The notes beneath the pieces are model-generated. The model ran no database searches and was not told where the DNA came from. It saw only the letters and a list, made by a program, of their open reading frames with translations. A DNA stretch of 62,342 bases, filler included, from Platydemus manokwari (taxonomy: Eukaryota): NCBI GenBank assembly GCA_037951405.1. It is 6 parts of 6 records of this genome, joined end to end, with 100 filler letters (N's around TTAATTAATTAA, not from the genome) between each part and the next. Parts side by side here need not be neighbours in the genome. Positions count along the whole stretch, not along the records: positions 11,643 to 21,479 come from JBBMOY011198432.1; 5 more parts are not named here. One strand, written 5' to 3'. Position 1 is the first letter of the stretch; every line of letters starts with the position of its first letter. The position numbers and the translations under genes were made by a program. Shown here piece by piece: positions 4,400 to 59,869 of the stretch.

Positions 4400-7300
4400 C
4401 GAATAAAATTATAGTTGACCAATAGTAAGGTAGATTTGATATTAAGTTGAGGAGAATTTGAGGTTGAGAGTGTTAAATAAGATCAAAAGTCACAAAAAGC
4501 ACTGGTTTGACACATTGTAACCATTGTTTCGAAATTCTACATAAGCATAGGGTTACACAGCTATACAATATTTAATAGTGTGTTAATAGGATGAGCAATA
4601 TCTGAGCAAATTTGTATAATTTTCTATAGTAATTTGCAAGTTCGAGAAAAGATCTAACTTCATCAACAATGGCTGTAATCAGAAATTTTAGAATTATTTC
4701 TACTCACGCTGGGTTTGGTTTCAAATCTTTTCTAGAAATGTTATGACCAATGTGTGTGACTCCTGACTTGTCCCAATCGCATTTTGAATCTCTAGAGTTC
4801 AAGTTTGCTAATTTGAATATTTTAAATACTTTTTCTATATCAACTAAATGTTCTTTAAAATCTTTAGAAAAATATTGATATCATCAATATGCACCATTGC
4901 AAATGTGACATCCTTGAGTATAAAGTCAATAGCTGTTTGAAAGATTGTAGAAGCTTTTGTTAAACCAAATGATATGACATTGAATTAAAATAAGCCATCA
5001 TCATCGATAAACGATGTTTACAATTTAGCCTACTCAATTGCAAATTGACAATATACTTTGTTTAAGTCAATTGTAGAAAATATTTGGGAATTTTCTGTTT
5101 TATCATAAATAATTAGTGAAAGAGATAATGGGTGACTGCACTTAACTTTCGATAGTTCACATACCATTTGATGCTACAATATTTCTTTTTTACCAATACC
5201 ATTGGAAATCCCCATGCAGTAAACTAGGTCATAAGATATTATTCTCAAATATTTATTGTTTTTGTTTTCCGCTGTCTTCCAAGTGAGCATATGGTATACA
5301 GTATGGTCTGAATCTCATGTCTTCTTGTCTACTAACAATGGCATTACATGTTCTACTACATGAGTACTACCTACATAAAATTATTGTCTAGCTATTATTT
5401 CCCCAGCAATTTCAATTTCACTTTTTGATTTTCATTTATAATGTGGATATCAATTTTTTATATTATCATATTTTTTATTTTGATTTTATCAACAGACTGA
5501 TCAACATTAGATATGGTTGATGATGAGAACTGGAATTTAGCGTTATAGTTGTATTTTCAAAATTAGTTAAACGAGCAGATATCCTTTGATTCTCTATTAG
5601 TACTAATTCACAAATGATTCATTTCATATTTTTGTATGAACTGTTGATTTGGTTCAAATAATAAGCATCCTTTGTCAGATTCGCGTGTGCTAGCATAGTA
5701 TACAACCACTGAACGTATGGGTTTAGTCAACATACTATCTAAATACACTTCATTCGATTTATACATTGACTTGTCCGAGAAGGCTTCGACAAAATTTCAT
5801 GTTCGTAAATCCAATGCTATATTTCTTCGTTGTTATAGTATATCCATTCCTAAAAAGTATTTGAATGCACAGCCTTTCATTATAACTAAAATGTTCTGCA
5901 TTATTTCCCCTGTCATTTTAATATTAACCACAATGATTTCTACAATTTGTGGTGTCGATCCTATTATTGTTTTCATACTTTCTTCTATCCGAACTATATT
6001 TCTTCTTTTTGTGTTAGAAATCCCTTTATATTATTTTAATACTTAATCCTGACTCAATCATTGTATCAACTTGTTTGTAATTTAACTTAATTCGTGTGGA
6101 AAATGTTAGACACTTATGCGCTAGTGTCATATACGTGTGAGCCAGGTTAATACCAATTGATTTCTTTTTCTCTACACTCCAATTTACTTCTGGTATTTCC
6201 TATAAGAGAGGTTTCATTTCTTTCAGTTCTCTCAAAGAATAAAATGATGCTGGTGATTTAAATTTTACTGATATAAATAAATCATTTAAACGTGATTCAT
6301 TTTTGTTCTCTAATCGTTCTAATCTTAATAGGGTTCCTGATTCTTCCCAATTGGGTACTGATATATCTGAATTCGTCATTATTTTTTTCATCATCACCTG
6401 AGTTAAAGTCATTCTTTTCCTCATTCGGTTGGTAATTGTCCGTAATCAAACATGAGCTGAATTTCACTTTTCTTTTATTTCTTATTTCAGATTTAATTAT
6501 ATTCATTTCTTCTTACTGATGATTAATTATAAAGAATTTATTTAACTAAAAACGGAACATATCCTAAAATTATTTTCCACGAAACACCTATATATATACA
6601 ATAAGTAGACAATATCTGTTTAAATAGAACTTTTGTAAATGTAAAAAAAAACATACACTCCAATCAATACGATGGAGGCTAACAAATGAATAAGAACTTT
6701 TCCAAAATTTTCTCATGGCATATAGAGTTGCTTTTTATTAATGATAAGAGCTTAGCAAGTACTTTAAATTGGCTTGTCAACTTCCCTTTGATAGCAATAC
6801 GTTCTCTTTTTGATTGAAACAGTAGGTTAAATCTGACCCCGATCAGATCTCTTGGTAAATGCATTCCAGTAGCTGCTGAATAATTTAAAGATGTTAAATT
6901 TATTAAGCATCTCAATTTAGTTCTTACTTCTCCGAAAGGTTAATTATATTTCTATTTGACAGTGAAATCCAATCATTAGAGGTTATTCTATATAACGGAC
7001 TTAAGATGGAGTTAAACTCTCAGCTTATGGGTTTCTTCCTTTTATCCAAGATGATTCGAGTTATAGATTCCATAAAAGGCACTTTTCTTTCGAGATTGAT
7101 TGTAAGTTTATTTGTACACGTGTCGTAGTTCATTATTTGTACAGAAATATTTTTGAATCTGTAACTATATAGTACCTAGACTAGAACACAACCAAATTTC
7201 CCATTATAAGCAAATCACAGTTTCTACTGTGTTTGGGTTTGTCAACAACATTGTCATTCTTTTTCAAAGAATTTATTGATTGAGCATGCAGTCATTTAGT

Positions 7301-9103
7301 ATGATTTCTTTATATATACATTAGTTACTGTATTTTGATCAAAATGAAGAGTGTTGTTCAGTTTATCTCTGAGATACTGTGCAAATTTTATGTCAACTTT
7401 GTAGACTTTTTCTTCGACCCTTTCCAGCTTTATTTTTTATACATATAGTCTTTTGTAGCTAATCTGATATATTAATTCTGATTACGCAAGTTCCATCTTT
7501 GGTCAAGGTTGGCATCAGAAAAGTTGAAATTTGTTTCGCACTACATGAAATTGCTTTTATCTTACCATTAGGTGTTCTATCGTGAGGTCAACTATTAATA
7601 ACTTCATTTACACGTTCGTCTTTAACTTCCATTTAATTGGTTTCTTTCAGGAACGACAAATTATACTTCTTTGATTTTACATTGTGAATTAAGACCGACT
7701 CACCGGTTTGACAGCTTTGTGTTTTGAGTTGTAAAATAGATGAGTTTGCAGCTGCCCAGTCAATTAATCAAACACATCTTCCCATTGTCGTATTCTTCCA
7801 TTACTACAGATTTATCAACGATTTATCCGGAAAATTTATATGGCTCTCCTTCAGATTCTTCGTCGGCTTCTCCAGATCATCTAATCGCAGTGGATTCTCT
7901 CATTATATAATCTCTTTTCGCAGACAGTCTAATTTCGGTGCATATTTTTAATTTTCCGGTTTGAAAGGCTGCTTTATGATTTTCTGCATCTATCTCCAAT
8001 GGTCTGGAAATTGCCTACATCATAATTAACGATGTATGACTCCACTTGTGAAGATGAAATATGAAACTTATTTCCTACCAATGTTCTCTTTAATCTAAAC
8101 TTTAATTTAATTCGATTCCTGATATAAAATTAGTTCTCGTAATCTCCATTTGATATTTTCATCGGACATGTTTTGGGACATCCTATTATATCTATGAATA
8201 TATTCTTCCCATCTCTATTTTAGAGCAATTATACGCAATTAAGATTCTAACCTCATCTCCAACACCAAATATCATTATCATTGCCATGAAAAATTATTGC
8301 TCTATTCCAAAAGTTTCAGAATAAAATTTCAAATTTCAATGCTATACTATTTTTGTTCTTTGATTTCGTCAAATATATTCGATTTTTATCATTTATTAAT
8401 TCAATTTCATTAGATTCTCTGTTCTCCCCTTTTAAGAATTTTATTATTGTTAAAAATTTCATTGAAATGGCAAATTAAATGCTTCTTCTTGAATTCCATG
8501 TATAGCATCACTTTTTGTAAATTAAATTGGTCATGTTATTTATTTTATCGATAATTCTTTCCTCATAATAAACCTCAACATTATTTTATTTGTTTTTCCA
8601 GCAATATATCCGTAATTTAACAATTTTTAATCACTATCTAAATTTTTATTACGAGTTTTAACACAAATTGGTGAATGCGTGCAATTCGACTTAGTGCCGT
8701 CCATAAATTTTATGATTGATGAAATTTCGATTTTATCCGTTTCTGTAGCATATGTGTTAGGTTGGGGAAATATGGATGTGGAATTCATTTCATATTTTGG
8801 TCGAATGATGCTGACAGCGTTTCAATTTCTCCTATATAACGTCTTTCATGACCTTCAAATGGATTTTATTTCTTCTATTAATCTGATTATATGCTTCTCT
8901 CGCTGCAACTTGACGTAAAGAGAAGGTTCTCTCACTGGGTCTCTTCCCTATTTATCGACTGTTAACTTCTAAGAACTACCAAAATCTGCTTTGGGAATCA
9001 CTTTGATCTGAGGTTAAACTTTTTGAAAATGATGGATTTTGTTGCCCTGATATTGATAATCTAATGTCACAAGATAAGTTTCTTTTCGATATCGGGCTCA
9101 CCA
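4400..9103 (-). mobile_element. Decayed Ty3/Gypsy LTR retrotransposon (gag-like region, protease and RT relics; many stops and frameshifts)
   Basis: Minus-strand translation gives RT motifs: QIFSTIDLNKVYCQ (~5050-5090), GLF*FNVISFGLTKASTIFQ (~4935-5000) and AMVHIDD (~4879-4900, decayed YxDD). Aspartic protease relics: VDTMIESG (~6048-6072) and YFLGMDIL (~5840-5862). A PBS lies at the upstream end. Boundaries are approximate. Confidence 0.85.
9092..9103 (-). promoter_or_regulatory. Primer-binding site of the first Gypsy element, probably tRNA-Trp
   Basis: Minus strand TGGTGAGCCCGA matches the canonical Trp PBS TGGTGACCCCGA at 11/12 positions and lies upstream of the gag/pol relic. Confidence 0.55.
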
Positions 9104-11542: not shown

Positions 11543-11642
11543 NNNNNNNNNNNNNNNNNNNNNNNNNNNNNNNNNNNNNNNNNNNNTTAATTAATTAANN
11601 NNNNNNNNNNNNNNNNNNNNNNNNNNNNNNNNNNNNNNNNNN
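11543..11642. other. Artificial assembly linker (N-TTAATTAATTAA-N, 100 bp)
   Basis: Identical 100-bp spacer recurs five times; its core carries stop codons in all frames. Confidence 0.97.
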
Positions 11643-11713
11643 ATATCCTATTGATTGATAATATATCAATCAAAATTTGAAATTGTCAAAACGGACATTA
11701 CTTTTCGGATGAC

Positions 11714-12375
11714 CTAATACATTACCATTATGGTGGTCGAGCTAGAAATTACTGTTCCAATTAGCATTATGTTTACGGTGATTTCATTTTGGAGTTTCTT
11801 ATTACTCAAAAAGGTCGTTTTAGTATTGTCTGATGTTCTCGTAACCTTTGTTGTTGTTTTAATAATGGGTTTTGTTGTTGTCTTCTTTACAGAGGGTTCT
11901 AGGACTACTTTTTCTTGATGAATTATGAACATAGGGTTACTTTTTTCATAATACCAGAAATATATATTTTTGGGGTTCTTAATATTAACATTCCGGGTGA
12001 TGATTTTTTCTGTGGAGTTTATTTTATACTGATGTTCGTTTAAATGCACTCTTACTTCAAAGCATTTTAAATCTTCCGAAATGATTTTAACTTGATTTAG
12101 CAACTTTTCGATGAATATTTTTCGGGGTAACCCGGGTATGCCTCTGGGCATTTATCGATGTCTAATAATGAATATTTTTGTTCCCAATCTGGTTTTCCAC
12201 AGTCGTAACCATCTATTCCTGCATCTGCTCCTCCTATTAATCCTACTAGGTACATTGTTAATAATGCTTGGACTATGGTGGTAAATTTAGATTTTTGTTT
12301 AGGCTGTTGTTTTCTAATTGCTTTTCTTCCTTTTGAACTAAGACCTTTCTTTTTTTCAGGTAATTGTTCTATCAT
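11714..12375 (-). pseudogene. Env-like membrane glycoprotein (frameshifted near 12100-12150), N-terminus resembling chuvirus-type/BEL-Pao env glycoproteins
   Basis: Hydrophobic signal TIVQALLTMYLVGLIGGADA is followed by GIDGYDCGKPDWEQKYSLLDIDKC. After a frameshift come KLLNQVKIISEDLKCFEVRV, a Thr/Lys-rich stalk and a hydrophobic C-terminal segment (ITVNIMLIGTVISSSTTIMVMY). Confidence 0.6.
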
Positions 12376-12405
12376 TAATTTAGTCCATCCATTATTTTAG
12401 TTTAT

Positions 12406-15400
12406 TTAATTCTCATATTCATTTGCTATTAATTGCACTCCCCCGACTTTATCAATTATTTGATTATCTATTAGGTTTATAGTTGTTTGCAACGTCGTTA
12501 TCATTTTTCCAGGTGTTTTCTTTTCATTCATTATTTTTATAACTTCCTTAGCTGTTTCCTTATCTGATATTTTATTGCTTATTCGATTTATCTCATCCTT
12601 ATATTTACTCGTGCAATGGTCTAATGTCTTTATATGCAATTTCTCATTGTTATCTAAGGCGCTGGTTTGGCCACTAAGGGCTTGTAAATATTGTTTAATT
12701 TTCTCCTTAACTTCCTCTTTCTGATTAAATTCTTTTATTGCCTGTTCATGTGTTTCATTTTTTTCTAATGCGAGGATTTCGTCACTGAGTGTTTGTGTTT
12801 TATATTTGATTCTTTAGATGGTATATCCTTTTCGTTTAAATTTGTGGGATCATCAAAATTTGTGATTTTATTATTAATTTTATTCTTAACTCCTGGGGGC
12901 CTTCCTTTAGTTTTTCTAGTCGTTGTTTCTTGATCTCTTAATTCCTTATTATTCTTTATTTCTTTTTCTGTTTCAGTTTCCTTTTCTATCTTATCTTCTT
13001 CTCCTTTTCCTTACTCATTTTCTTAACCTATCTTCTTCTATATGTTTTCTTTGAACTTCTTGTTCTATTATTTCTCCATTGTCACCATAATTATATGTTA
13101 TCAATTGATTTATTGGCTCATTTATTACTTGAAACATTCTTGATGTTGATGGCATACATTCTTTTCTTATCATGTTCTGGTAATAATCATATACAACTTG
13201 TGGTATATAACCATAATTATTTTGTGGTTGAAATTGAGGTGGGAATATTGGTTGTTGCTGGATATGATATTCTTTATATATTATTTCTTCTTCTAATTTA
13301 TCTTCTTCATTATTCATTTCCGGTGTTGTTAAATTTATTTCTTCTCGGTATGGGTAAATTATTTTCTTGATTTCCAAAATATTTTGATTTCCAAAGCATG
13401 GATTATGATATTGTCATTCTAAACATCCCATAAAATTTCCTAATTCATCTTGTTGTTTTCTTATTTGCTTATTCACCTTATATATTTCTGGTGATTCTAT
13501 TAATTTCATGAAATCCTTTCCTGATGATTCAGTATCTTCTACATTTTTGACTTCCTTTTTCTTCTTTTTCTTCTTTAATGCTTCTCTTTTTTCATCAATG
13601 CTTTTATCATCCCCACTTACTACTTTATCTATTATTTCATCCAAGTCTACTGACCATTGTTTATTAACTTTTCTTTCTCTTTTTTCTACATTTCTTCATT
13701 TCTATTTTTCCTGATTCATCGATTTTATCATTCATTGTCTCTTCCTTTTCTTCGCATCTTGTATTGGTGCTATTATGTTTACTATTATTACGTTGACCTC
13801 ATCTTCTGATAATACCTTTTTTAGTTCTTCTTCCTCTATTAAAATTCGTTGTTTGTATTTCATTATTATCTTATTTAATCCCCATTCTCTTCTATTTAAA
13901 TGTTGTTCTTCTATTTTTCTCTTCAAATGTTTTACTTCTTTCTTTTTCTTAATTAACTTATAATCCCCTAAATCGTCCCTGTAACTTTTCAACACTTCTA
14001 TTTTTATTATATATATATTTATCTTCTTCACTTATCAACCCTATTTCTATACTATTCCATTCTGTTGGTTCTAAACTATAGTGCCAAAATTGATAATCGT
14101 CATCCAATATCCTCCAGACATCCTCTTTCTTTCCCTTATGCTCATATTTTAATTCTATCCTTCTTGGTATGCTTTTCCATCTTATATATATTTTTCTTGC
14201 GGTAATCCTGTTTGTTTAGATTTCCAGTTTTTGAACCATTTGATGCATTTCCACTTATTCTAAATTCTTCTATTTTTTCTTTCCCCTTATATTTAGTCTT
14301 AATTGGTATACAGGGGCGGACAATAACCATATTGGTAATTTAATATTATCTTCATCGCGAGTAATTCTTTAGTCCCAAGTTCTCATTACTGCTATTATTT
14401 TATTTTTCTAATTTCCTCTTATTCGATAGTATCCTATTTGTTTTTCATTATTCATGAATACTCCTTTTGTCATTAATTCCAATGTTATTCCTAATAAAGG
14501 CTCACCTTTTCTCATTAACATTCATACATCAACCTTATATGTCATTTTGCTGATTCCCTCTCTTTTAAATGGCCAGATTCGATCTATCTCAAATTTTAGG
14601 TAGTCTACGGTTGCTGTATCTTTTACTATTATTGTCTATATTGTTTCATTGCCTGTGTTGTCTATCATTTTAACTTCTATCTCAATTTTGTTCTCCTGCC
14701 TGATTTCTTCTTCACAGATTTTTATATTTATCTTCTACTGTCTCCATGGAACTGCTGTTGTTGTATTTTGTTTTTCCATCATGACTTTTATTTCTATTAC
14801 ATTTATTTCATCTTTCTTAAATATATTTTTTATTTTAATCTTATTATCCACTTGTTCTTGATTATGGTATATAATTATTTTTTCATCATTCTTTTTATAA
14901 AAATATAGTTCCTGTATTGCTTCTTGCACTTCCCTTATAGTTCGAATTTCTAATATTGATTTATATTCCTTAATTCTATCAGTGTAATAATTGGGTTCTA
15001 TAATTATTTTAACTCTGTAATGTGCCCATTCGTCTTCTATTAATGTGATCGATATCTCATTCTTATAATATACATTCAACGGATAATACCAAAATTGGAG
15101 GTCTTCGTCTAAAATTCCCAATTTTCCTAACTCTAATTCTCTTTCTAATGTGTATTTCCTTTCTTCTTGCCTATATCGTTCTTTTCTCCATCTTATTACA
15201 TATTTATCTGGTGGTTTTTCTTTTTGTTTACCCATCCATTTTCTAAACCATTGTATTGATGTACTTTTATTAACTTTAAACCTTATTTTCTTCCTTTCGT
15301 CGTATGTATCTTTTCATATTGTTATTTCTAACTCATATACTAAATTCCCTGTATTTTCGTTGATCCTCTTATCCACTTACTACCATATTTTCCTTCATTT

Positions 15401-17352
15401 ATTTTCTTGTCGTAAAAGTCCATGGTCTCATCATGGCCGTAACCTTTATCCTTATCTATTAGGAAGAAACTTAAGTGTTCTCTATACATGATCAACTCCT
15501 TCAGCCATTAATTCTAATATTTTTCCTATTGTTTCTATTTCTATGTTTGTACAAGTTTGTCCTGATACTGTTCCAACTCTATTCTCTCCAAATTTCCTTT
15601 CGTCTCTCTCAATTGGCCAAATTTGTGCTTATCCTAACTTGTTTATTAGTTTCCTCATCATTTTTACCTATCATTTTAACTTCAACATCAGCTTTTCCTT
15701 TAGCTGCTATTCTTCTTCTACTCCATGCTAAACCTATTGCTGATTGTGTTACTAACGATTGACTTATTCCATATTCTTCTCTATTCATCATATTTATTTG
15801 CTTATTTCCCTTATCTCTTTCTTTTATTTTACTAATTCCATCTTCTGGTATGTATGGTATTTGTATCATTCCGTCCTTAACTACTGCTTGTGGATGTAAT
15901 GCTTTAATAAATTGTTCCTCTGTTTAAACCATGTTTGATCTATTCCTTATTGTTAACAGTTCATTATTTTCATCAGCATAGTATTCTCCTAAACACTTCC
16001 ATCCTAACATTCTTTTACTTCCTTGCATCATTTTAACTTTTCCCCTTATCTTATTAAATTCCTCAGGCCAATCCAAAATTAATAATTTTTTAAATAATTG
16101 TACTGATGTTTTCAACAGTAATGTTTCTCCTTTTATTACCTTTTCCCTGTATTGTCATAGATTATTAATTCAAATTTTCCCATTTTTTCTTCAAATGTAT
16201 TTGTTATTATTTCAGGTTTAATGATATCTCTTCCTTTAAGTCTTTCCCGTTTTTTTTGTTTCCATAATTAAATATATTTTCCTTGCTCACTCCACCTAAT
16301 TAATTTATGTAATTGATATAATATTATTTTAGTCATATGCATTTCCCTTAATTTATTCCTTATCCTAAATTTTTGTCCCACTAAACAATATCTATTATCT
16401 CATTATACAGTATATCCTTGATATAAATTAATAAATTTCCATGTTAGAACTTCAGCTGCTCATCTATAGGCGTTCATTTTTATCATCCCCACATTTATTA
16501 ATTTGTTTTCCATTTTTAACCTAACACATAACCAGATGAATTTTTTTGCCATTGCATGATTTTCCTTGCGTCGTCGTTTTTTCCATTTGCCTTTTACTCT
16601 TATATCCCTATGTTGTAATGTTATTTCTATTATCGTTGCCGTGTTTGGCCTTATATATTCAGATTGTAATATTTGAATTATGATTTTAATTCTTTCCCCT
16701 TCACTTGTATCATCTTGATTTTTAAACCAGTTTAATCTTATAATTTCTATTACTATATCGTTTTTATTTTCATTTAATGCCATACCGTACATGTGTCTTA
16801 ATGTATTTACATTATGCCTATTTTTCTGCCTTATAACACATTCATTCCATAATATATCATTATCCTCATGATTTTTTATTTCTCCAAATTCCTTATGAAA
16901 TTTTTCTAATTCATTCTAAAACTCATTCATATACTCATTTTCATACTCGTAGACATGTGTGTGTTGCTTATATTTTACATGCATCCTGATTTTACGTTCT
17001 TTTATTTCATTATCTTTTATTTCATCTTTTAAATTTTCAAATTCCTTTTTTGGCAATAGCTTTTTTAATTTGTTAATTTTATAACTTCAGATATTGATAA
17101 TATTCTTCCTTCTTTCATTCCTTTTAATGGTAATAAATTTTCTATTAACTCATTCTCTATGTCAATTCTTGATTTTATTTCTTCAATTTCATTGTTTGTT
17201 AATTCACTGTTATTCTCATTTAACTCATAATTTATTATTTCGTTACTATCTTCATTATTAACTATTTCAATATTTTCCTCAACTATCTCGTCATTATTCT
17301 CTATTTCACTAACATATGCAGAACTAGTTTCAGGAAATTCAAAATTATCCAA
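12406..17352 (-). pseudogene. Decayed accessory coding region of the LTR element (unknown function; putative ubiquitin/SUMO-like modules, AT-hook-like motif, charged low-complexity tracts)
   Basis: Near-continuous chain of minus-strand ORFs (17065-17352, 16460-16792, 15924-16115, 15609-15869, 14735-15235, 13732-14031, 13414-13644, 13015-13377, 12406-12639) separated by stops and frameshifts. Confidence 0.55.
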
Positions 17353-17534
17353 TAATTTAAGTGAGATGTTTAATCAGAATTAAATATCAATTTAATTCAA
17401 AACAATTTGAATTCACATTTTATTCAGACTTAATTTTAATTTTATAAAAAATTTAATTAATGTAAAATTAGAATTGTTTATTTAAATATTAGGATTTAAA
17501 ATAGATTGTTTGTGTCTTGACTTTTAGTTCAATT

Positions 17535-18917
17535 TTAATGTGTGGTTTTTAAAATAGTAGCGGCTAACAATTTATTTTCATTAACATCACTATTACAACC
17601 ATTACTATCATCGAATTCGCATAAATCACTTATTTCACTATTACAACTGCTATGATCAACATTATCTTCATTATTATTATCAATTTCAACTTCCTCATTA
17701 TCAATTAACTGCGGGCCACCGGAATTTGCATCAGACTTACTAACCTTAATATCATTATCAACTTCAATTTCTTCATTAGTGACTTTAAATCCCCCAATAT
17801 CAACTTTAAATTTCTCATCAACTTTGAACTGTAATTCAGGTGCAACATTAATGAAATGACTTTCCGTCATCACATTCTCTATTATCTTCTTACTCCTATA
17901 TTGCTCAATTACTTCCTTATTAGCTAACATACAAATTTCCCTATTATTTTCCCTATTTGACCCATAAATCACTGCAACTCTTTTAGCTTTTTGTATTAAC
18001 TCATCAAAGTTTTTATATTCCGATAATGCTTTTAGCCTTCTTAATAGGGGTATTATTCCCCTTTTAAATTGATCTATAATCATTTGCTCGCGACCCTCAA
18101 CAGATACATATTTTCCATAAGCCTTAACTACGAATTCTTTTAGTGCCATTGAATATTCTCCAACACTCTCTCCAACATTTGATATCTATCATTAAATTGC
18201 TTAACATAAAATTCATGTACATCATCCTCCATAACTAATTTGCTTTTTAATTCCTTAACTAAATCCTTATAATTTTTGATTTCACTAAAATTCAATCCTT
18301 GAAATGTTTGTAACGCGTATGATTTTAAATACAATGACAGCCTTTGAAACTGCTCTGCCTGTGCCCAGCTATATGCTTCAGTCAATCTATCATATTCATT
18401 GAAGAAATCATCAAACCCTTCTTGTTTTCCATCATAGGGATTAATTGGTATATATACATTTTTGTTATTCATTATTACTTCATTCATTTTATCTAATGGT
18501 GCTTTACAATTTATAATTATCTCACTATCTATATCAACTTGGATGCCTGTTTCAATTATTTCACTATCAATTTGGGTGCTCATATCTTTACAATTATCTT
18601 TATCAATTATTATTATTATCTTTATTAATGGTGCTTATTTCTTCAAAATTATCCTCTAATACTACTGTAGAATTTGAACTACTTGTTTCAGGTAAATTAC
18701 TACTACTGGGTTCTATCGATTCAATATTATTACTATAATTTTCTTTACTGCTATTTTCTAATTCACTTTCACTACTAGAATAATTTCCAATTTCACTATT
18801 AATTCTTCTTTTTCCTAATTTCTTATTCACTATATCCAAATTTTCTAATAAATTGCTTTTGCATGCGTAACGTAATTGTCTATTGGATTTGTCTAATATC
18901 AAATTTCTTTTATTCAT
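17535..18917 (-). pseudogene. Gag (Ty3/Gypsy retrotransposon capsid), frameshifted near 18600 and 18150
   Basis: PYDGKQEGFDDFFNEYDRLTEAYSW...LSLYLKSYALQTF...YKDLVKELKSK...FNDRYQ, then ESVGEYSMALKEFVVKAY...IIDQFKRGI...NFDELIQKAKR. This is the typical CA N- and C-terminal domain pattern. Confidence 0.85.
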
Positions 18918-19359
18918 ATGCGCTCAATGCGGATTTCAAATTATCAGTTTTATCGCTCAATGCGTCAATTTATCAATTTAATAGCGCTTAAAAATCCTAT
19001 TGAACAGACAAAATTTTGCTTTATGATCACGTCAACCGCCAAATTTTTGAGCCCCTTCAATGTGAAATCAAATTTCAATTAAAATTAAACTACCCAAGTC
19101 TATTAACACTTTTTGCAGATTTTAATCAACACTTTTCGGGGAACAATCAATGCTTATTACGAACAGACTTATTAAGTTATCACTCTCTTTACTAAATAAT
19201 AACACTTAGAGCCGGGTGTAGACCTCTCAAATTGTTAACTTTGTTACTATAAAGTTGAAAACCTTAATCTGTATTTATTCTTTTTATATACCGAAGTTAC
19301 TTATTATGCGTCGCTAAACTAGCTCTCCGGTTCACGCAATAAAAACGCGCTTTAATTAT

Positions 19360-19500
19360 CAAATTTATCAAAAGCTTTATCGCTTAACTTTAATTTCAAT
19401 TTGTCAATATTAGCTCCTCGGCTTAATTTCAATTTATCAAATTTGTCAATAGCTCTTTGGCTCAAATTAACTTTTTCAATAGCTCTTTATCTCAATTCTA
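19360..19500. repeat. Degenerate short tandem repeats in the retroelement 5' leader
   Basis: Recurrent ~30-40 nt unit of the form tcaat(a/t)agctc....gct(c/t)aa(t)ttcaattt. Confidence 0.6.
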
Positions 19501-19922
19501 TTTCTTTTACTTTATCTATTAGGATTCTAATAATTTCCAATTTCACAAATTTACCTATCTGTAACTTTAACTTATCAATTTTTAAATTCACAATTATATC
19601 GATTTAAAAACTTCACAATTCAGCACCAGTTATCCAATTATCGGTCTTGTTCAAATTTAATACTTAATGTTTAAACCTTAAGAATTCACTCAGATTCTCA
19701 AAATTTCACTAATTATTTTCACTTTTACACTAAATTTCTCCTTTCTCAAACACCAGTTGATGTTAACTATTTATGGTTTCAAACTTTTAATAATTCTTTA
19801 ACAAAGATTTCTCCTTACTCGGGCTTACCAATTGATGTTAAATTTTAAAACTTTTAATAACTTTTAGCAAATTTGTCCTCACTCAAAGGTTTATAATTTT
19901 ATTAACTTTTTAAAAGGAATTC

Positions 19923-19940
19923 TCCTCACTCGGGGCACCA
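19923..19940 (-). promoter_or_regulatory. Primer-binding site complementary to elongator tRNA-Met 3' end
   Basis: Minus strand TGGTGCCCCGAGTGAGGA versus the animal tRNA-Met(e) PBS TGGTGCCCCGTGTGAGGA (one mismatch, recalled sequence). It lies 2 nt after an ...ACATCA LTR end. Confidence 0.8.
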
Positions 19941-19942
19941 GT

Positions 19943-21025
19943 TGATGTATTTCAAGCTTGTTAATTTAATTTTTGTTTTAATCAGTCTCAATAAATTACT
20001 ATGATTTTGCTCACGGATCACTGTTGTCTTGATCAATCTCAAATGAGTCTTAATCAAGCCCGAGGTACACTCTATTAAACCTCATTTCTATAACTATATT
20101 TATCTCGCAATCAAAACTATATGAAAATAGAAATGATTGGGAACAATGATCCAAAGTGTGTAATTTAAACCTTTGAGTCTCAATTATGTTATAAATATTT
20201 TGCCTCAATTTATCGATCAACAATGCAACTCCTTCTACAACTAAACGTTTATTATATAAAACCAAATTACAGTTTGCAATACAATATACGCCAAATATAA
20301 AAATGTTGGATCAACGGCTACGCTTACAATTCCAGATGATAGCGATTTATACCTCCTTATCTTGGATTAAAACCGGTTACCAAAGATGTTTTTGAGCACG
20401 GCTCTATATTAAAATGATGAACGAGACGTACTATAGATACAAATCAGTTGTTTACAAAATGATTTAACTTACTAATTGGAAAATGGCAAATGGTATTGAT
20501 ACATTCTATTGACGATCAAATTTTCTAATGAACTTCACGCACAGTGGTTTCAAAATTTAAAATGGGCTAAATGAAATAAAGGGCGAGTTCTGATGTTTCG
20601 AAGTCCTATTTATAGGGAATTTTATTCGTTAGGTTTTAAATGCTTTATCTCGCTACATTATATTTTATTCCCCATGGATTTCCCGATATTTCTAATGATT
20701 TTCCCTTAATTATAAAATTTTATTGTTGAAGATATCATAAATTTGTGTCAATAAAATTTAAATATTTCCCTTTGAATATTATTCTTATTTTATTACTTCC
20801 TTTTAATGTCATTCCAAATGATACATCGTTGATAATTTAAATTAAATATAAATTATTGATATTATTATTATTATTATTATTTACACTTTTAATTTACCGC
20901 TTATCATGAATTAACCAAAAATAATACATTTAAATATATGTAAAAATGTATCAAAAAACAAACAATAAATCGCCTAAATATTCAGACGTTGTTACCAAAA
21001 ATACATCGTTACTTTTAATGTAACA
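19943..21025 (-). repeat. Putative 5' LTR (~1.1 kb; outer boundary tentative)
   Basis: Ends in CA next to the PBS. Contains CCTATAAATAGG at ~20605-20616. Candidate TGTTAC start at 21025. No partner LTR was seen in the window. Confidence 0.55.
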
Positions 21026-21479
21026 AACTTTATTCCTCAGGTGTGTCCAAGAAAATGTTAATTTGTTTGACTACATAGTTAATTAAAACTATTATTATTA
21101 TCTATTTTAAAACTACATTTATAAATAAATGCTTTGTTTAGCTTATAAGTTAGTTTTACAATTTACCCTAGGGGGATTTCAATAAAACATTACAAATAAC
21201 TACGAACAAAAGTATTATTAAACATAAAATATTATTAGAGTGTTCAATGTTATTTTCAGCTTGATTGGCCCAATCACCAACAAAACATTGATAATAATTA
21301 GACATTATTGGAAATATTTTGTCTTTATCTACCTATTCTAACCACTATCTCGTCATAAATCCTTTCATTATATTGAATTATTAATATAAAATATTTCAAT
21401 ATATACAACTTTTCAAATATAATTATACAAAATTTAGCTTCTTAATAAAACGTTATAGAAAACTGAACACCAAAACACG

Positions 21480-21579
21480 NNNNNNNNNNNNNNNNNNNNN
21501 NNNNNNNNNNNNNNNNNNNNNNNTTAATTAATTAANNNNNNNNNNNNNNNNNNNNNNNNNNNNNNNNNNNNNNNNNNNN
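21480..21579. other. Artificial assembly linker
   Basis: Same 100-bp N/TTAATTAATTAA/N spacer. Confidence 0.97.
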
Positions 21580-31679: not shown

Positions 31680-31779
31680 NNNNNNNNNNNNNNNNNNNNN
31701 NNNNNNNNNNNNNNNNNNNNNNNTTAATTAATTAANNNNNNNNNNNNNNNNNNNNNNNNNNNNNNNNNNNNNNNNNNNN
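31680..31779. other. Artificial assembly linker
   Basis: Same 100-bp spacer. Confidence 0.97.
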
Positions 31780-42524: not shown

Positions 42525-42624
42525 NNNNNNNNNNNNNNNNNNNNNNNNNNNNNNNNNNNNNNNNNNNNTTAATTAATTAANNNNNNNNNNNNNNNNNNNN
42601 NNNNNNNNNNNNNNNNNNNNNNNN
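42525..42624. other. Artificial assembly linker
   Basis: Same 100-bp spacer. Confidence 0.97.
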
Positions 42625-48700: not shown

Positions 48701-49135
48701 GACACACACCGATGAATTGGGTAAATTATCCGTGTCCGTTTCCAATATTTTTCATATCAACCTCATCTAGTCTGTCCCGAAACAAATGAGCTTTCATGGT
48801 ATTTGACGCTGCGGGCGGCAGTGTCGTTTTTAACTGTGGAACGACGTTGGCCCGGCCAGTTGCAGACTCATGGAGAAATCGATGTTCCTCATCTGCGTAA
48901 ACTCCTCCAACAGGACCTCAATGCTTGTGCTAAGTTGAAAGATGCTTCTGTGAAAGATGATTTTCTTCTGGAGATGTGTCGATTTGCAGGCATCCAATTG
49001 CATTCCGTTTGCTCATTCATTGGCGGGGTGGCGGCACAAGAAGTCATTAAGCTGATAACCAGCCAATATGTGCCTGTCATGCAACCGTTAATGTACAACG
49101 CTATCAATCAAACCACAAATCTCATCGATATTTAG
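45705..49135 (+). CDS. NAE1: NEDD8-activating enzyme E1 regulatory subunit (APPBP1/Ula1). 15 exons, approx: 45705-45751, 45794-45897, 45944-46004, 46172-46202, 46244-46315, 46360-46439, 46490-46709, 46775-46837, 46888-46948, 47868-47983, 48029-48088, 48142-48354, 48400-48439, 48634-48720, ~48771-49135
   Basis: Hallmark motifs [82 protein letters not shown] and [26 protein letters not shown], joined through GT-AG introns. Confidence 0.96.
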
Positions 49136-51893: not shown

Positions 51894-51993
51894 NNNNNNN
51901 NNNNNNNNNNNNNNNNNNNNNNNNNNNNNNNNNNNNNTTAATTAATTAANNNNNNNNNNNNNNNNNNNNNNNNNNNNNNNNNNNNNNNNNNNN
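51894..51993. other. Artificial assembly linker
   Basis: Same 100-bp spacer. Confidence 0.97.
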
Positions 51994-56796: not shown

Positions 56797-57000
56797 TGAC
56801 TAATTAAAGAATAAAGTAACTCAAAAGAAATAAATTAAATTAAGTAATTTAGGAATCCGACAACAATTAACAAAATAATTTGACCTACAAATCTAATATT
56901 TAAACGATCTCAACAAAATGATTATGAGAAATTAAGATTTTATTGTATATTATTAAAATATATCTAGAAATTCGTAATTAAGGGTAACACAATATTAAAG

Positions 57001-57820
57001 TCTAATTTTTGAATATATTAATTAATTAAAAATATATTCTAATTATTCTTATTAAATTTGATAAATTTTTTTAACAATAGAAGTACATTTAAACTGATTA
57101 AATTATTAATACTGTATAGAAAGTTAGCACATTCTCTTTCCTAAAATGTGTGAAACACTACTTCTTTAAAGACATTTTAAGTATGTCAACTATATAGGAA
57201 ATTTTACTTAATTCACCATCTTACAATAAAATTACTATGCTAAAATGTTTTATACAAACTAAACAAAAATAACTTATTGTTCCTTAAATGTTCATGTTTC
57301 ATTTTTCAAAAATACAATTATACTTAGTTGAATATCCAATATAAATAATCACTATAAACAAATTTAATTTCAAATCTAAAATAAAAATTCGAAATATTGT
57401 CATAATACAAACATTTAATTTTTGTTTAATAAATATCATCAATTTCAAAGACAGAGTGCTGTTAATAGACATACTTGATATTGTTTTATTTTTTAAATAG
57501 GATTTAAATAATTTTATTAAACTTTTGTGAATTTTTGAAATGTAAATTGTTTGTTGAAATTATTAGATCAATATAACTCCGTAACTTGCTTACTATTCGT
57601 ACAAAAACAATCAAATCAAAAGTCAAAGATCAAATATTGTGTCAATGAATAATTTTTATATAAATTTTTATATAAAAATCAAGTATTAATTTAGAAATTA
57701 TTCAGAATTGGAAGCGTTGCTAATTCAAACAGAATTGAAATTATTTTTCCTTTGAAAAAATTCCATCAAAAATATGTTTGTAATTTCATAAAAATAAAAT
57801 AATTTTGTACCTTGGACCTA
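57001..57820 (+). repeat. Diverged tandem duplicate of the two flanks of the bHLH gene (A 57001-57377 ~ 57912-58270; B 57378-57820 ~ 59386-59857)
   Basis: Long shared blocks such as GTATAGAAAGTTAGCAC, AATATAAATAATCACTATAAACAAATTTAA and TGAATTTTTGAAATGTAAATTGTTTGTTGAAATTATTAGATCAATATAACTCCGTAACTTGCT. Confidence 0.92.
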
Positions 57821-58408
57821 TCATTTTAACATTTAACTACCTACACAACTATACATACATAGCAACCGAGCAATCACAACTGACTAAAATTCGAAATTGG
57901 CACAAGATTAGTCTAATTTTTGAATATTTCGAATATTTTTAATACTTATTTAAAAATTCTACTTGAATTTGATAAATTCCTTCAACAATGGAAGTACATT
58001 TAAAACTTATTAATATTATGTATAGAAAGTTAGCACTTTCTCTTTCATAAAATGTGACAAACACTACTTCTTTAAAGACATTTTCAACCTCTCTACCACA
58101 TAAAAAAGTTTACTTAATGCACTATCTAAAAATAAAACTACTACACTTGAATGTTTTATACAAACTAAACAAACTTATCGATCCTTAAACGTCCTTTTAC
58201 AAAAATACAATTAAACTTAATTGAATATCGAATATAAATAATCACTATAAACAAATTTAAATTCAAATCTTTAACAATGATGTCAATAATAAAAAACATC
58301 ATATTGCGTAAACTAAATAAAGTTGTTATTAACAAAAGATGTTTATTCAATTATATCAATATCATTATTAACAATTAAGTGAACCTTAATTATAATAAAA
58401 TCAGTCGT

Positions 58409-59355
58409 TTATTTACTACACATCAAATTATTTGCTTTTTGGATGAAATTGGCAATGTGTGTTTTGAAATTATCATCTAACATATGGCTTTTATTTTTAA
58501 ATTGCTTTTTAATTTCATCAGCTAATAACTTAAGCTGTTTCCTTGTATCATCAAGATCAGTTTTTTTATTATCATCATCGTTCAAGTAAGAACATAGAGC
58601 ATGTAGCAACACTTGATATGATACTTTTTTCATATTTTTCCGACCAAGGTTATCTCTAGCTCGTTTGATATAATGAGGTGGCAAAACATCTTGTACTTTC
58701 TTTAAGCTTTCTGAATATTGCTTGCGTCTCTGACGTTCCATTTCGTTGGAAAAATGTCGTTTGTCAAAAATCATATCCGGACGTTGATAATTATCGGATT
58801 CATCTACGCCTTCAAAAACAGAAAATAAAAATTACCAAATTAATAACACAAAATTCAGTGAACTACAACTAAAAAATTTCTGCACGTGAACAACAAATAT
58901 TACTTAAATGTCCAGATGAAGAACTCTTATTAAATTCAAAGAGATCTTCATTTGAAAACTGGCTCATGTCGTTTTTAAGACATTCTTCATTTTCGTTCAA
59001 TAATTTCATTTCGTCGCTTAAAAATGCTTGATTGTTTATGGAATTATAACTTATTTGGGGTTGACTTAAAAGAAGATTTGTACAAATATCTATAACTCAA
59101 TTAACTATATGTGAGGTTAAAAAGTAAAACCATTATCTTCATTTACGTCGCTCATATCATCAAATTCATTCTGGTAATAATCTTTAATTATAAAATGATT
59201 TATAAGAACTTTATTGCAAAAATTAACCTGACTTTCCTATAGTAAATTCTTTATCAAAATTATTATAATCTATATCATCTTCTAAGAATTCATCAAAGAA
59301 ATCTATCAGAATAATTCAAATATTCAATATGATAATCACTCAATTTACTGTTCAT
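58409..59355 (-). CDS. bHLH(-zipper) transcription factor with acidic N-terminus. 5 predicted exons: 59355-59349, 59302-59228, 59181-59131, 59089-58904, 58809-58409
   Basis: Basic region RHFSNEMERQRRKQYSESLKKVQDVLP, loop, and helix 2 KVSYQVLLHALCSYL, followed by a heptad-like segment. Upstream exons splice in frame (MNNFFDEFLEDDIDY...). AATAAA on the minus strand at ~58342-58347. Confidence 0.78.
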
Positions 59356-59869
59356 AATGGATGATTTTAACAAATTATAGTTTTTTAAACAAAAATTCGA
59401 AATATTGTCATATTCAACAAATTTAATTTTAGTTTTAATTTCTGTTTAATAAATAACATCAATTTCCAAGACAGAGTGCTGTTAACATGCATACTTAACA
59501 TTATTTTATTTGTAAATAGAATTTAAAGAATTTTATTAAACTTTAGTGAATTTTTGAAATGTAAATTGTTTGTTGAAATTATTAGATCAATATAACTCCG
59601 TAACTTGCTAACTATTCTTACAAAAATAATCTAACACTAAAAGTCAAAGATCAAATATTATGTCAATGAATAAATTTTTATATAGATTTCTAAAAATCAA
59701 GTATTAATTTAGAAATTATTCAGAATTGGAGGCGTTACAAATTCACACAGGATTGAAATCGATGAAATTATTTTTCCTTTAAAAAAATTTCACCAAAGAA
59801 ATGTTGAGTAGGGACGAAATCTCACAAAAGTAAAACAATTTTGTACTTTGGAACCATAATCAATAAATA

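Follow-up and report, generated by a model that had tools for sequence, protein, structure and literature searches.

Organization of the locus

The window, by which we mean the whole stretch of DNA that was analysed, comprises 62,342 nucleotides from Platydemus manokwari. It consists of contigs of about 10 kb joined by five 100-nt spacers, each made of N44, 12 letters and N44, and its GC content of 23–36% is that of AT-rich animal DNA. The candidate env is found on the minus strand, at the extreme end of the contig that occupies positions 11643–21479. The features of this contig, of the spacers and of the adjoining contig are as follows.

19923–19940, minus strand: PBS-like 18-mer, starting with TGG two bases after CA (read from the sequence; repeat family D8)
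17535–18634, minus strand: Gypsy-type gag-like frames, frameshifted (motif pattern seen by eye in translations)
13958–15340, minus strand: accessory domains in tandem, their ILDxDxQFWxY motif being duplicated (internal duplication, E 6e-7)
12385–12813, minus strand: putative Bcl-2-like region, in frame with the env head and crossed by two stops (12408 and 12399), placed by position and by its BH2-like GW stretch, which can be aligned to protein P0001
12229–12285, minus strand: hydrophobic segment (hydropathy), a putative internal signal-anchor
12133–12219, minus strand: predicted head, GYDC..YSLLD..CPEAYP, at the N-terminus of an env of HSV/gB type (chuvirus-like, family PF24664; phmmer, shuffles)
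12097–12151, minus strand: overlap of the two env frames (55 nt, from the sequence), with the frame break somewhere inside
11714–12151, minus strand: second open frame, 145 codons, beta-rich, then Thr-rich, then with a marginally hydrophobic end
11543–11642, no strand: artificial contig spacer N44-TTAATTAATTAA-N44, core letters as read here, which cuts the element
11543–11642, 21480–21579, 31680–31779, 42525–42624 and 51894–51993: the five 100-nt spacers, with equal N-run lengths
6700–8281, minus strand: second gB-type env, more decayed and of full-length type (tblastn with P0002 residues 4–32, 99–168 and 198–224)
about 6120–5800, minus strand: protease-like remnant after the neighbouring env (by eye only)
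5107–4823, minus strand: reverse transcriptase (RT) remnant of the neighbouring copy (RVT_1, E 3.1e-5)

The final stop of the second frame occupies 11714–11716, and what had been implied to be a natural protein end is a stop 71 nt from an artificial spacer. Only 567 nt separate the GYDC of the env head from the gap. Nothing resembling an LTR-type repeat of the element's 5' region was found before the gap, so the element presumably runs on past it. The spacer, as read at 11543–11642, has stops in every frame, and adjacency across the spacers is unreliable.

Elsewhere in the window, a plus-strand stretch at 48725–49135 (weak ThiF match, E 0.021) is presumably a host exon resembling the C-terminus of the NEDD8-activating enzyme regulatory subunit. 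A host ORF on the minus strand at 58409–58831 has a weak HLH match (E 0.0016), and duplicated non-coding blocks are found around it, at spacings of about 0.9 and 2.0 kb, within 56999–59805.

The element upstream of the env head

At the far end of the contig the PBS-like 18-mer may resemble the 3' end of tRNA-Met. The junction motif formed by an LTR end and this PBS-like sequence occurs three times on the minus strand (19936–19948, 19826–19838 and 19751–19763), at spacings of 75 and 110 nt. A 39-nt tandem array is present at 19350–19462.

The gag-like frames are followed on the same strand by charged helical frames and then by the duplicated domain. The tandem accessory frames, which by eye we take to be ubiquitin/SUMO-like, have a weak ThiS (beta-grasp) Pfam match (E 0.055) and no ubiquitin match in PDB. 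By appearance there are three to four such ubiquitin-like domains in tandem, two of them with ILDxDxQFWxY; the Burro elements of planarians are described with a single Ubi2/SUMO-like motif. In the frames scanned, Pfam gave no gag, CCHC, BIR, ankyrin or MATH match, which decay may hide, and the upstream frames scanned gave no Pao-family match.

The 13 upstream frames of at least 80 codons are 82–217 codons long, and the element copy is broken every 80–220 codons or so over its whole length. With stops and frameshifts throughout, the copy appears to be dead. Its sequence is abundant: in one public run, possibly the window's own source, 6728 contigs align to the 9.8-kb contig at 85% likeness, which indicates repeated DNA and gives no copy number. 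In two bins that span both env frames the summed depth in one run is 7617 and 3032, as against about 15 for contigs that match exactly. None of the eight matches listed, out of 6998, is a contig that bridges the junction between the head and the second frame.

Behind gag, an AT-rich stretch at 17353–17569 interrupts the element. Two contigs skip 215 nt there, loose ends accumulate and the depth reaches its maximum of 33,934, which suggests a secondary insertion of another repeat.

The env head

The GYDC motif lies at 12210–12199 and YSLLD at 12174–12160, both on the minus strand. The first frame, 12396–12097, holds the hydrophobic segment and GYDC..YSLLDIDKCPEAYP. Genuine env homology extends over about 43 residues (12264–12133), made up of the hydrophobic segment and GYDC..YSLLD..CPEAYP. 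An exhaustive phmmer search against 1.84 billion representatives returned two matches, P0001 (E 5.7e-4) and P0002 (E 9.2e-4), with which the window head shares 22 of 43 and 21 of 41 residues, respectively. P0002 is a fragment of the PF24664 Monjiviricetes fusion glycoprotein (Pfam E 4e-21; model length 653), and the head of P0001 matches PF24664 at E 6.8e-5, below the cut-off. None of 2000 shuffles reached the score of the window head against P0002.

Other searches with the head were negative within their scope. The head piece alone has no Pfam match, the PF24664 model included; a word-based protein search among longer proteins gave 0 of 55 candidates, a word-based search with the three-sequence alignment gave 1 of 5234, which is P0002 itself, and the ESM Atlas gave no usable match to the head piece. 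Contig scans for relatives confirmed none, either among viral pattern matches (0/17, 0/10 and 0/104) or in metagenomes (0/150 and 0/266).

These results support the head being the start of a chuvirus-glycoprotein-like (HSV/gB-type) env; the chuvirus-type GYDC..YSL..C opening recognised in the earlier note is upheld by the two phmmer matches, the family model and the shuffles. A chance occurrence of GYDC..YSLLD..C in AT-rich repeat DNA, for which one could cite the modest E-values (only 6e-4 to 9e-4), the missing Pfam match of the window piece and the empty word-based searches, is scarcely credible in view of the identities, the shuffles, the hydrophobic segment before the head and the expected element context.

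The hydrophobic segment and the Bcl-2-like stretch

The earlier note had started the protein at a Met and placed a signal peptide at its N-terminus. Upstream of that Met the frame reads on to 12813, through the stops at 12408 and 12399. Because the frame is continuous into the BH2-like stretch, the supposed signal peptide is internal.

P0001 and the upstream frame of the window form a colinear alignment of 114 columns (E 2e-13), in the order BH2-like GW stretch, basic linker, hydrophobic segment and head. P0001 is an unnamed protein of 248 residues whose single frame, which ends early, holds a Bcl-2-like domain together with one hydrophobic segment and the head of a gB-type env. Its upstream domain has a weak Pfam Bcl-2 match (E 0.012), all 52 of its 52 PDB matches are Bcl-xL (best E 0.056), and in one weak PDB match its hydrophobic segment lies opposite the C-terminal tail of Bcl-xL. 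Judged by sequence likeness, P0001 is an independent example of a fusion between a Bcl-2-like domain and an env head. The direct succession of the two parts in P0001 suggests that one segment serves both as the Bcl-2 tail anchor and as the env signal.

The Bcl-2 assignment of the stretch in the window itself is a putative one, made by position and motif only. The score of this part alone was reached by 138 of 2000 shuffles and is not significant; sequence searches with it, including PDB and a two-sequence profile, gave no Bcl-2 match, and a word-based search with the upstream frame plus head gave 0 of 2636. AlphaFold, given two sequences, predicts a helical hairpin (pTM 0.43), for which Foldseek found no match at E 0.001. 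Just upstream of the Bcl-2-like stretch, at 12765–13010 on the minus strand, there is a GRPPG motif that we take to be AT-hook-like.

The second frame

All the motifs that had been listed for a miniature env are present on the minus strand, split over two frames. What had been taken for one protein of about 200 residues therefore consists of parts in two frames that overlap at 12151–12097. A programmed frameshift joining the two was considered and rejected, the overlap holding no canonical slippery heptamer.

In the second frame, LLNQ is found at 12103–12092 and CFEVRV at 12064–12047. The Thr-rich stretch (11887–11804) has 14 Ser/Thr in 30 residues and the hydrophobic end (11782–11717) is Ser/Thr-rich with one Leu, all on the minus strand. 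The frame contains one Cys after the head and one N-glycosylation sequon. Its length is beyond local chance (Markov simulations of two orders, with 1 of 2000 reaching it in each); over the whole window about 0.1 frames this long would be expected by our estimate, so that one such frame is not rare. Its codon pattern is unlike that of the upstream frames (GC3 0.37 vs 0.22), and on two held-out pieces the codon score is +9.4 for the head frame and -12.5 for the second frame, values that are confounded by amino-acid content.

No relative of the second frame was found in Pfam, PDB, ESM Atlas or metagenome searches; the best ESM Atlas value, 0.80 to unnamed Apicomplexa clusters, is within chance, and AlphaFold of the frame alone gives a pLDDT of 33. 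The stretch LLNQ...C.V.V had been offered as env homology, a reading that does not hold: the Q-to-C spacing is 9 residues, as against 11 in P0001 and P0002, and no frame matches P0002 residues 45–304. For the three frames downstream of 12133, the scores against these residues were reached by 225, 97 and 240 of 1000 shuffles. The membrane anchor of the earlier note is also in doubt given its composition and its insertion score of +2.4; on the same approximate scale the neighbouring env has an anchor that scores -1.1.

The neighbouring env copy, which served as the control, gave a different result, with 0, 56 and 0 of 1000 shuffles reaching the scores of its three frames against P0002. It has a clear TM near 6720, about 1525 nt from its head, and by a count made by eye 46 of 92 ungapped positions are equal to Smed_errantivirus_1, a likeness that suggests a planarian host. 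On its sequence, the copy at 8281–4823 (minus strand) is a decayed Gypsy element with the order env, TM, protease-like remnant and RT. A tblastx comparison of the element with the neighbouring contig, minus against minus, found no similarity at E 0.05.

A conserved Y/F-x-V/I-YQE strand, with a Cys after it, is found within about 15 residues of the head in P0001, in P0002 and in 6/6 Schmidtea envs. Cys-rich domains I–II with fusion loops were not matched in any of the three frames directly after the window head and were detected in the neighbouring control, in agreement with the earlier claim that the env body is missing where it should start. The fusogen body has apparently been lost or replaced after about 12130; the absence of similarity is observed, and either cause would be conjectural.

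A probable gap-truncated element and its alternatives

The most satisfactory explanation, and in our judgement a likely one, is that the locus forms the 3' edge of a Burro-like Gypsy LTR retrotransposon, decayed, gap-truncated and probably from a planarian, and does not encode a working miniature protein. Intact elements, as published, encode a long frame in the order gag, accessory domains (ubiquitin-like and Bcl-2-like), env, protease, RT, RNase H and integrase. In such a product the hydrophobic segment would act as an internal signal-anchor, the Bcl-2-like domain staying in the cytosol while the gB-type env ectodomain is threaded into the ER lumen, and cleavage would then free the GYDC start. 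In the present copy the first 30 or so residues of the mature env are recognisable, and it would yield no working product. The apparent miniature env would arise from a start at the Met left by the stops, from the joining of two frames and from the stop beside the gap.

The fusion of Bcl-2-like domain and env in P0001, colinear with the window frame, supports the Burro-like reading. An env of gB type has an ectodomain of about 500–650 residues and a C-terminal TM, and the distance from head to TM in the neighbouring copy far exceeds the 567 nt available here. The proposal that a miniature fusogen was repurposed and is functional, or that it blocks receptors, is not borne out: the frame is broken throughout, the env start is internal to a polyprotein, no env ancestry could be shown for the stalk and anchor, and the contig stops short of a full env. 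Against the Burro-like reading stand the absence of pol from the contig, which leaves the backbone inferred, the Bcl-2-like stretch, which alone is not significant, the gag and ubiquitin-like calls, which were made by eye, and the lack of any BIR, ankyrin, MATH or CCHC match; moreover, 145 stop-free codons and many related contigs are poorly explained by a one-off dead junction.

The last two observations would fit a family-wide replacement. A subfamily may have exchanged the fusogen body for a short lumenal module that bears a stalk rich in Thr (O-glycosylated) and an anchor that holds weakly to the membrane, the present copy being a decayed member. The open codons follow directly after the head, and the order head, beta-rich part, Thr-rich part, hydrophobic part and basic residues would suit such a protein; coverage by repeated DNA spans the segment, the sequon would fit a lumenal module, and the hydropathy of the anchor equals that of signal segments. 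That anchor nevertheless falls well short of the TM in the genuine env close by, a single Cys follows the head, the GC3 of the frame departs from that upstream, and protein, Atlas and metagenome searches returned no relative. No contig that bridges the junction is among the few matches listed. We regard this replacement as unlikely. Its product would be, with equally little expectation on our part, a small surface or particle protein that keeps the signal and the first disulfide head and acts in adhesion or in interference with trimers of full-length env.

An internal deletion could instead have joined a degenerate protease or linker of pol to the head. The element would then be a non-autonomous derivative, and the anchor would represent beta-strands of a retropepsin fold. 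The hydrophobic end does give an ungapped 40-residue alignment to the neighbouring protease-like frame (10 of 1000 shuffles), and a second piece is colinear with the protease N-terminal frame, non-significantly (418 of 1000 shuffles). PR follows env in elements of this type (PMC6431247). The alignment was, however, chosen post hoc from a whole-contig tblastx and lacks the catalytic D-S/T-G motif; the second frame has no Pfam or PDB protease match, and the two pieces are by our estimate, from the retropepsin pattern, some 40 residues too far apart. Such a deletion seems to us quite improbable.

About as doubtful is a very divergent env of full length that carries an insertion behind the head and has its remainder past the gap. 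The short distance to the gap would allow this, and FIIHQE at 11929 resembles the Y/F-x-V/I-YQE strand of planarian envs. FIIHQE is not significant, ranking 34th of 124,554 window positions, which gives an expectation of about 0.12 for the region's 435 positions; the Cys that follows the strand in 6/6 Schmidtea envs is absent, as are the later motifs, and the neighbouring copy, which is more decayed, was still detected by the same shuffle test.

Implications

Under the preferred reading, a gap-truncated Burro-like element, the copy is one more decayed member of a described kind of element, and it carries a caution: contig spacers and the joining of frames can yield 'miniature' proteins. The dual role of the signal-anchor suggested by P0001 is testable on intact published elements.

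If the second frame were family-wide, we would be dealing with a retroelement that trades its fusogen for another surface module. There is a small chance that planarians carry a high-copy Gypsy subfamily in which the Bcl-2-like domain and the internal signal-anchor are retained along with the gB-type env's first disulfide head, the body having been swapped for a module of about 130 residues bearing a mucin-like stalk and an anchor. A class III fusogen would then have been turned, throughout a family, into a small non-fusing surface protein travelling with an apoptosis regulator, and in stem cells this protein might ride on, or interfere with, full-length envs made by sister elements.

Comparison with known systems

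The closest described counterpart is Burro (GYPSM1), a group of giant Gypsy-like LTR retrotransposons of dugesiid planarians. Planarian Burro is described as having a single ORF that codes for gag, Ubi2/SUMO-like and BCL2 domains, then env and PR-dUTPase-RT-RH-IN, so that env lies in frame between gag and pol; the elements exceed 30 kb with their LTRs and have a very high copy number (PMC6431247). The window element resembles it in its gag-like frames, in its accessory domains, in its putative ubiquitin/SUMO-like and Bcl-2-like regions and in the in-frame start of env ahead of the expected place of pol; the likeness of env to mononegavirus-type fusion glycoproteins is also common to both (PMC6431247). 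The window element is likewise repeated DNA, and fragments decayed by stops and frameshifts have been reported in a related species (PMC6431247). Unlike Burro as described there, the window element has no detected BIR, ankyrin, MATH or CCHC, its env body is unrecognisable and its pol lies outside the contig; its candidate 5' LTR is by eye shorter than 1 kb, far below what is described for Burro (PMC6431247). With pol, size and several accessory motifs unseen, we call the element Burro-like and do not claim membership of Burro in the strict sense. In the literature searched, most subscription papers being outside its scope, no paper on a shortened Burro env was found.

Other captured envs offer further points of comparison. 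The ectodomain of Smed_errantivirus_1-6 may be flanked by two hydrophobic segments (PMC13524379), and 6/6 listed envs have a domain I–II of 246–261 residues that starts with the YQE..C strand, none of which is detectable in the window env. Anakin, a BEL/Pao element with a chuvirus glycoprotein, carries the same env family as the window head (PMC7642597); it belongs to another retroelement superfamily and host, and the env start of the window is broken and lies behind a Bcl-2-like region in a gag-led frame. The same paper proposes solo or defective glycoproteins of mosquitoes as receptor blockers and calls for tests.

The combination of a gB-type env with a Gypsy element in a flatworm has already been described: Gypsy elements of Platyhelminthes, Nematoda and Bryozoa have a gB-type, Chuviridae-like env and the order GAG-ENV-POL (PMC13524379). 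The Gypsy-type backbone and non-arthropod host proposed in the earlier note are accordingly likely, given these two descriptions (PMC6431247, PMC13524379) and the neighbouring env-RT copy, the element's own pol lying beyond its contig.
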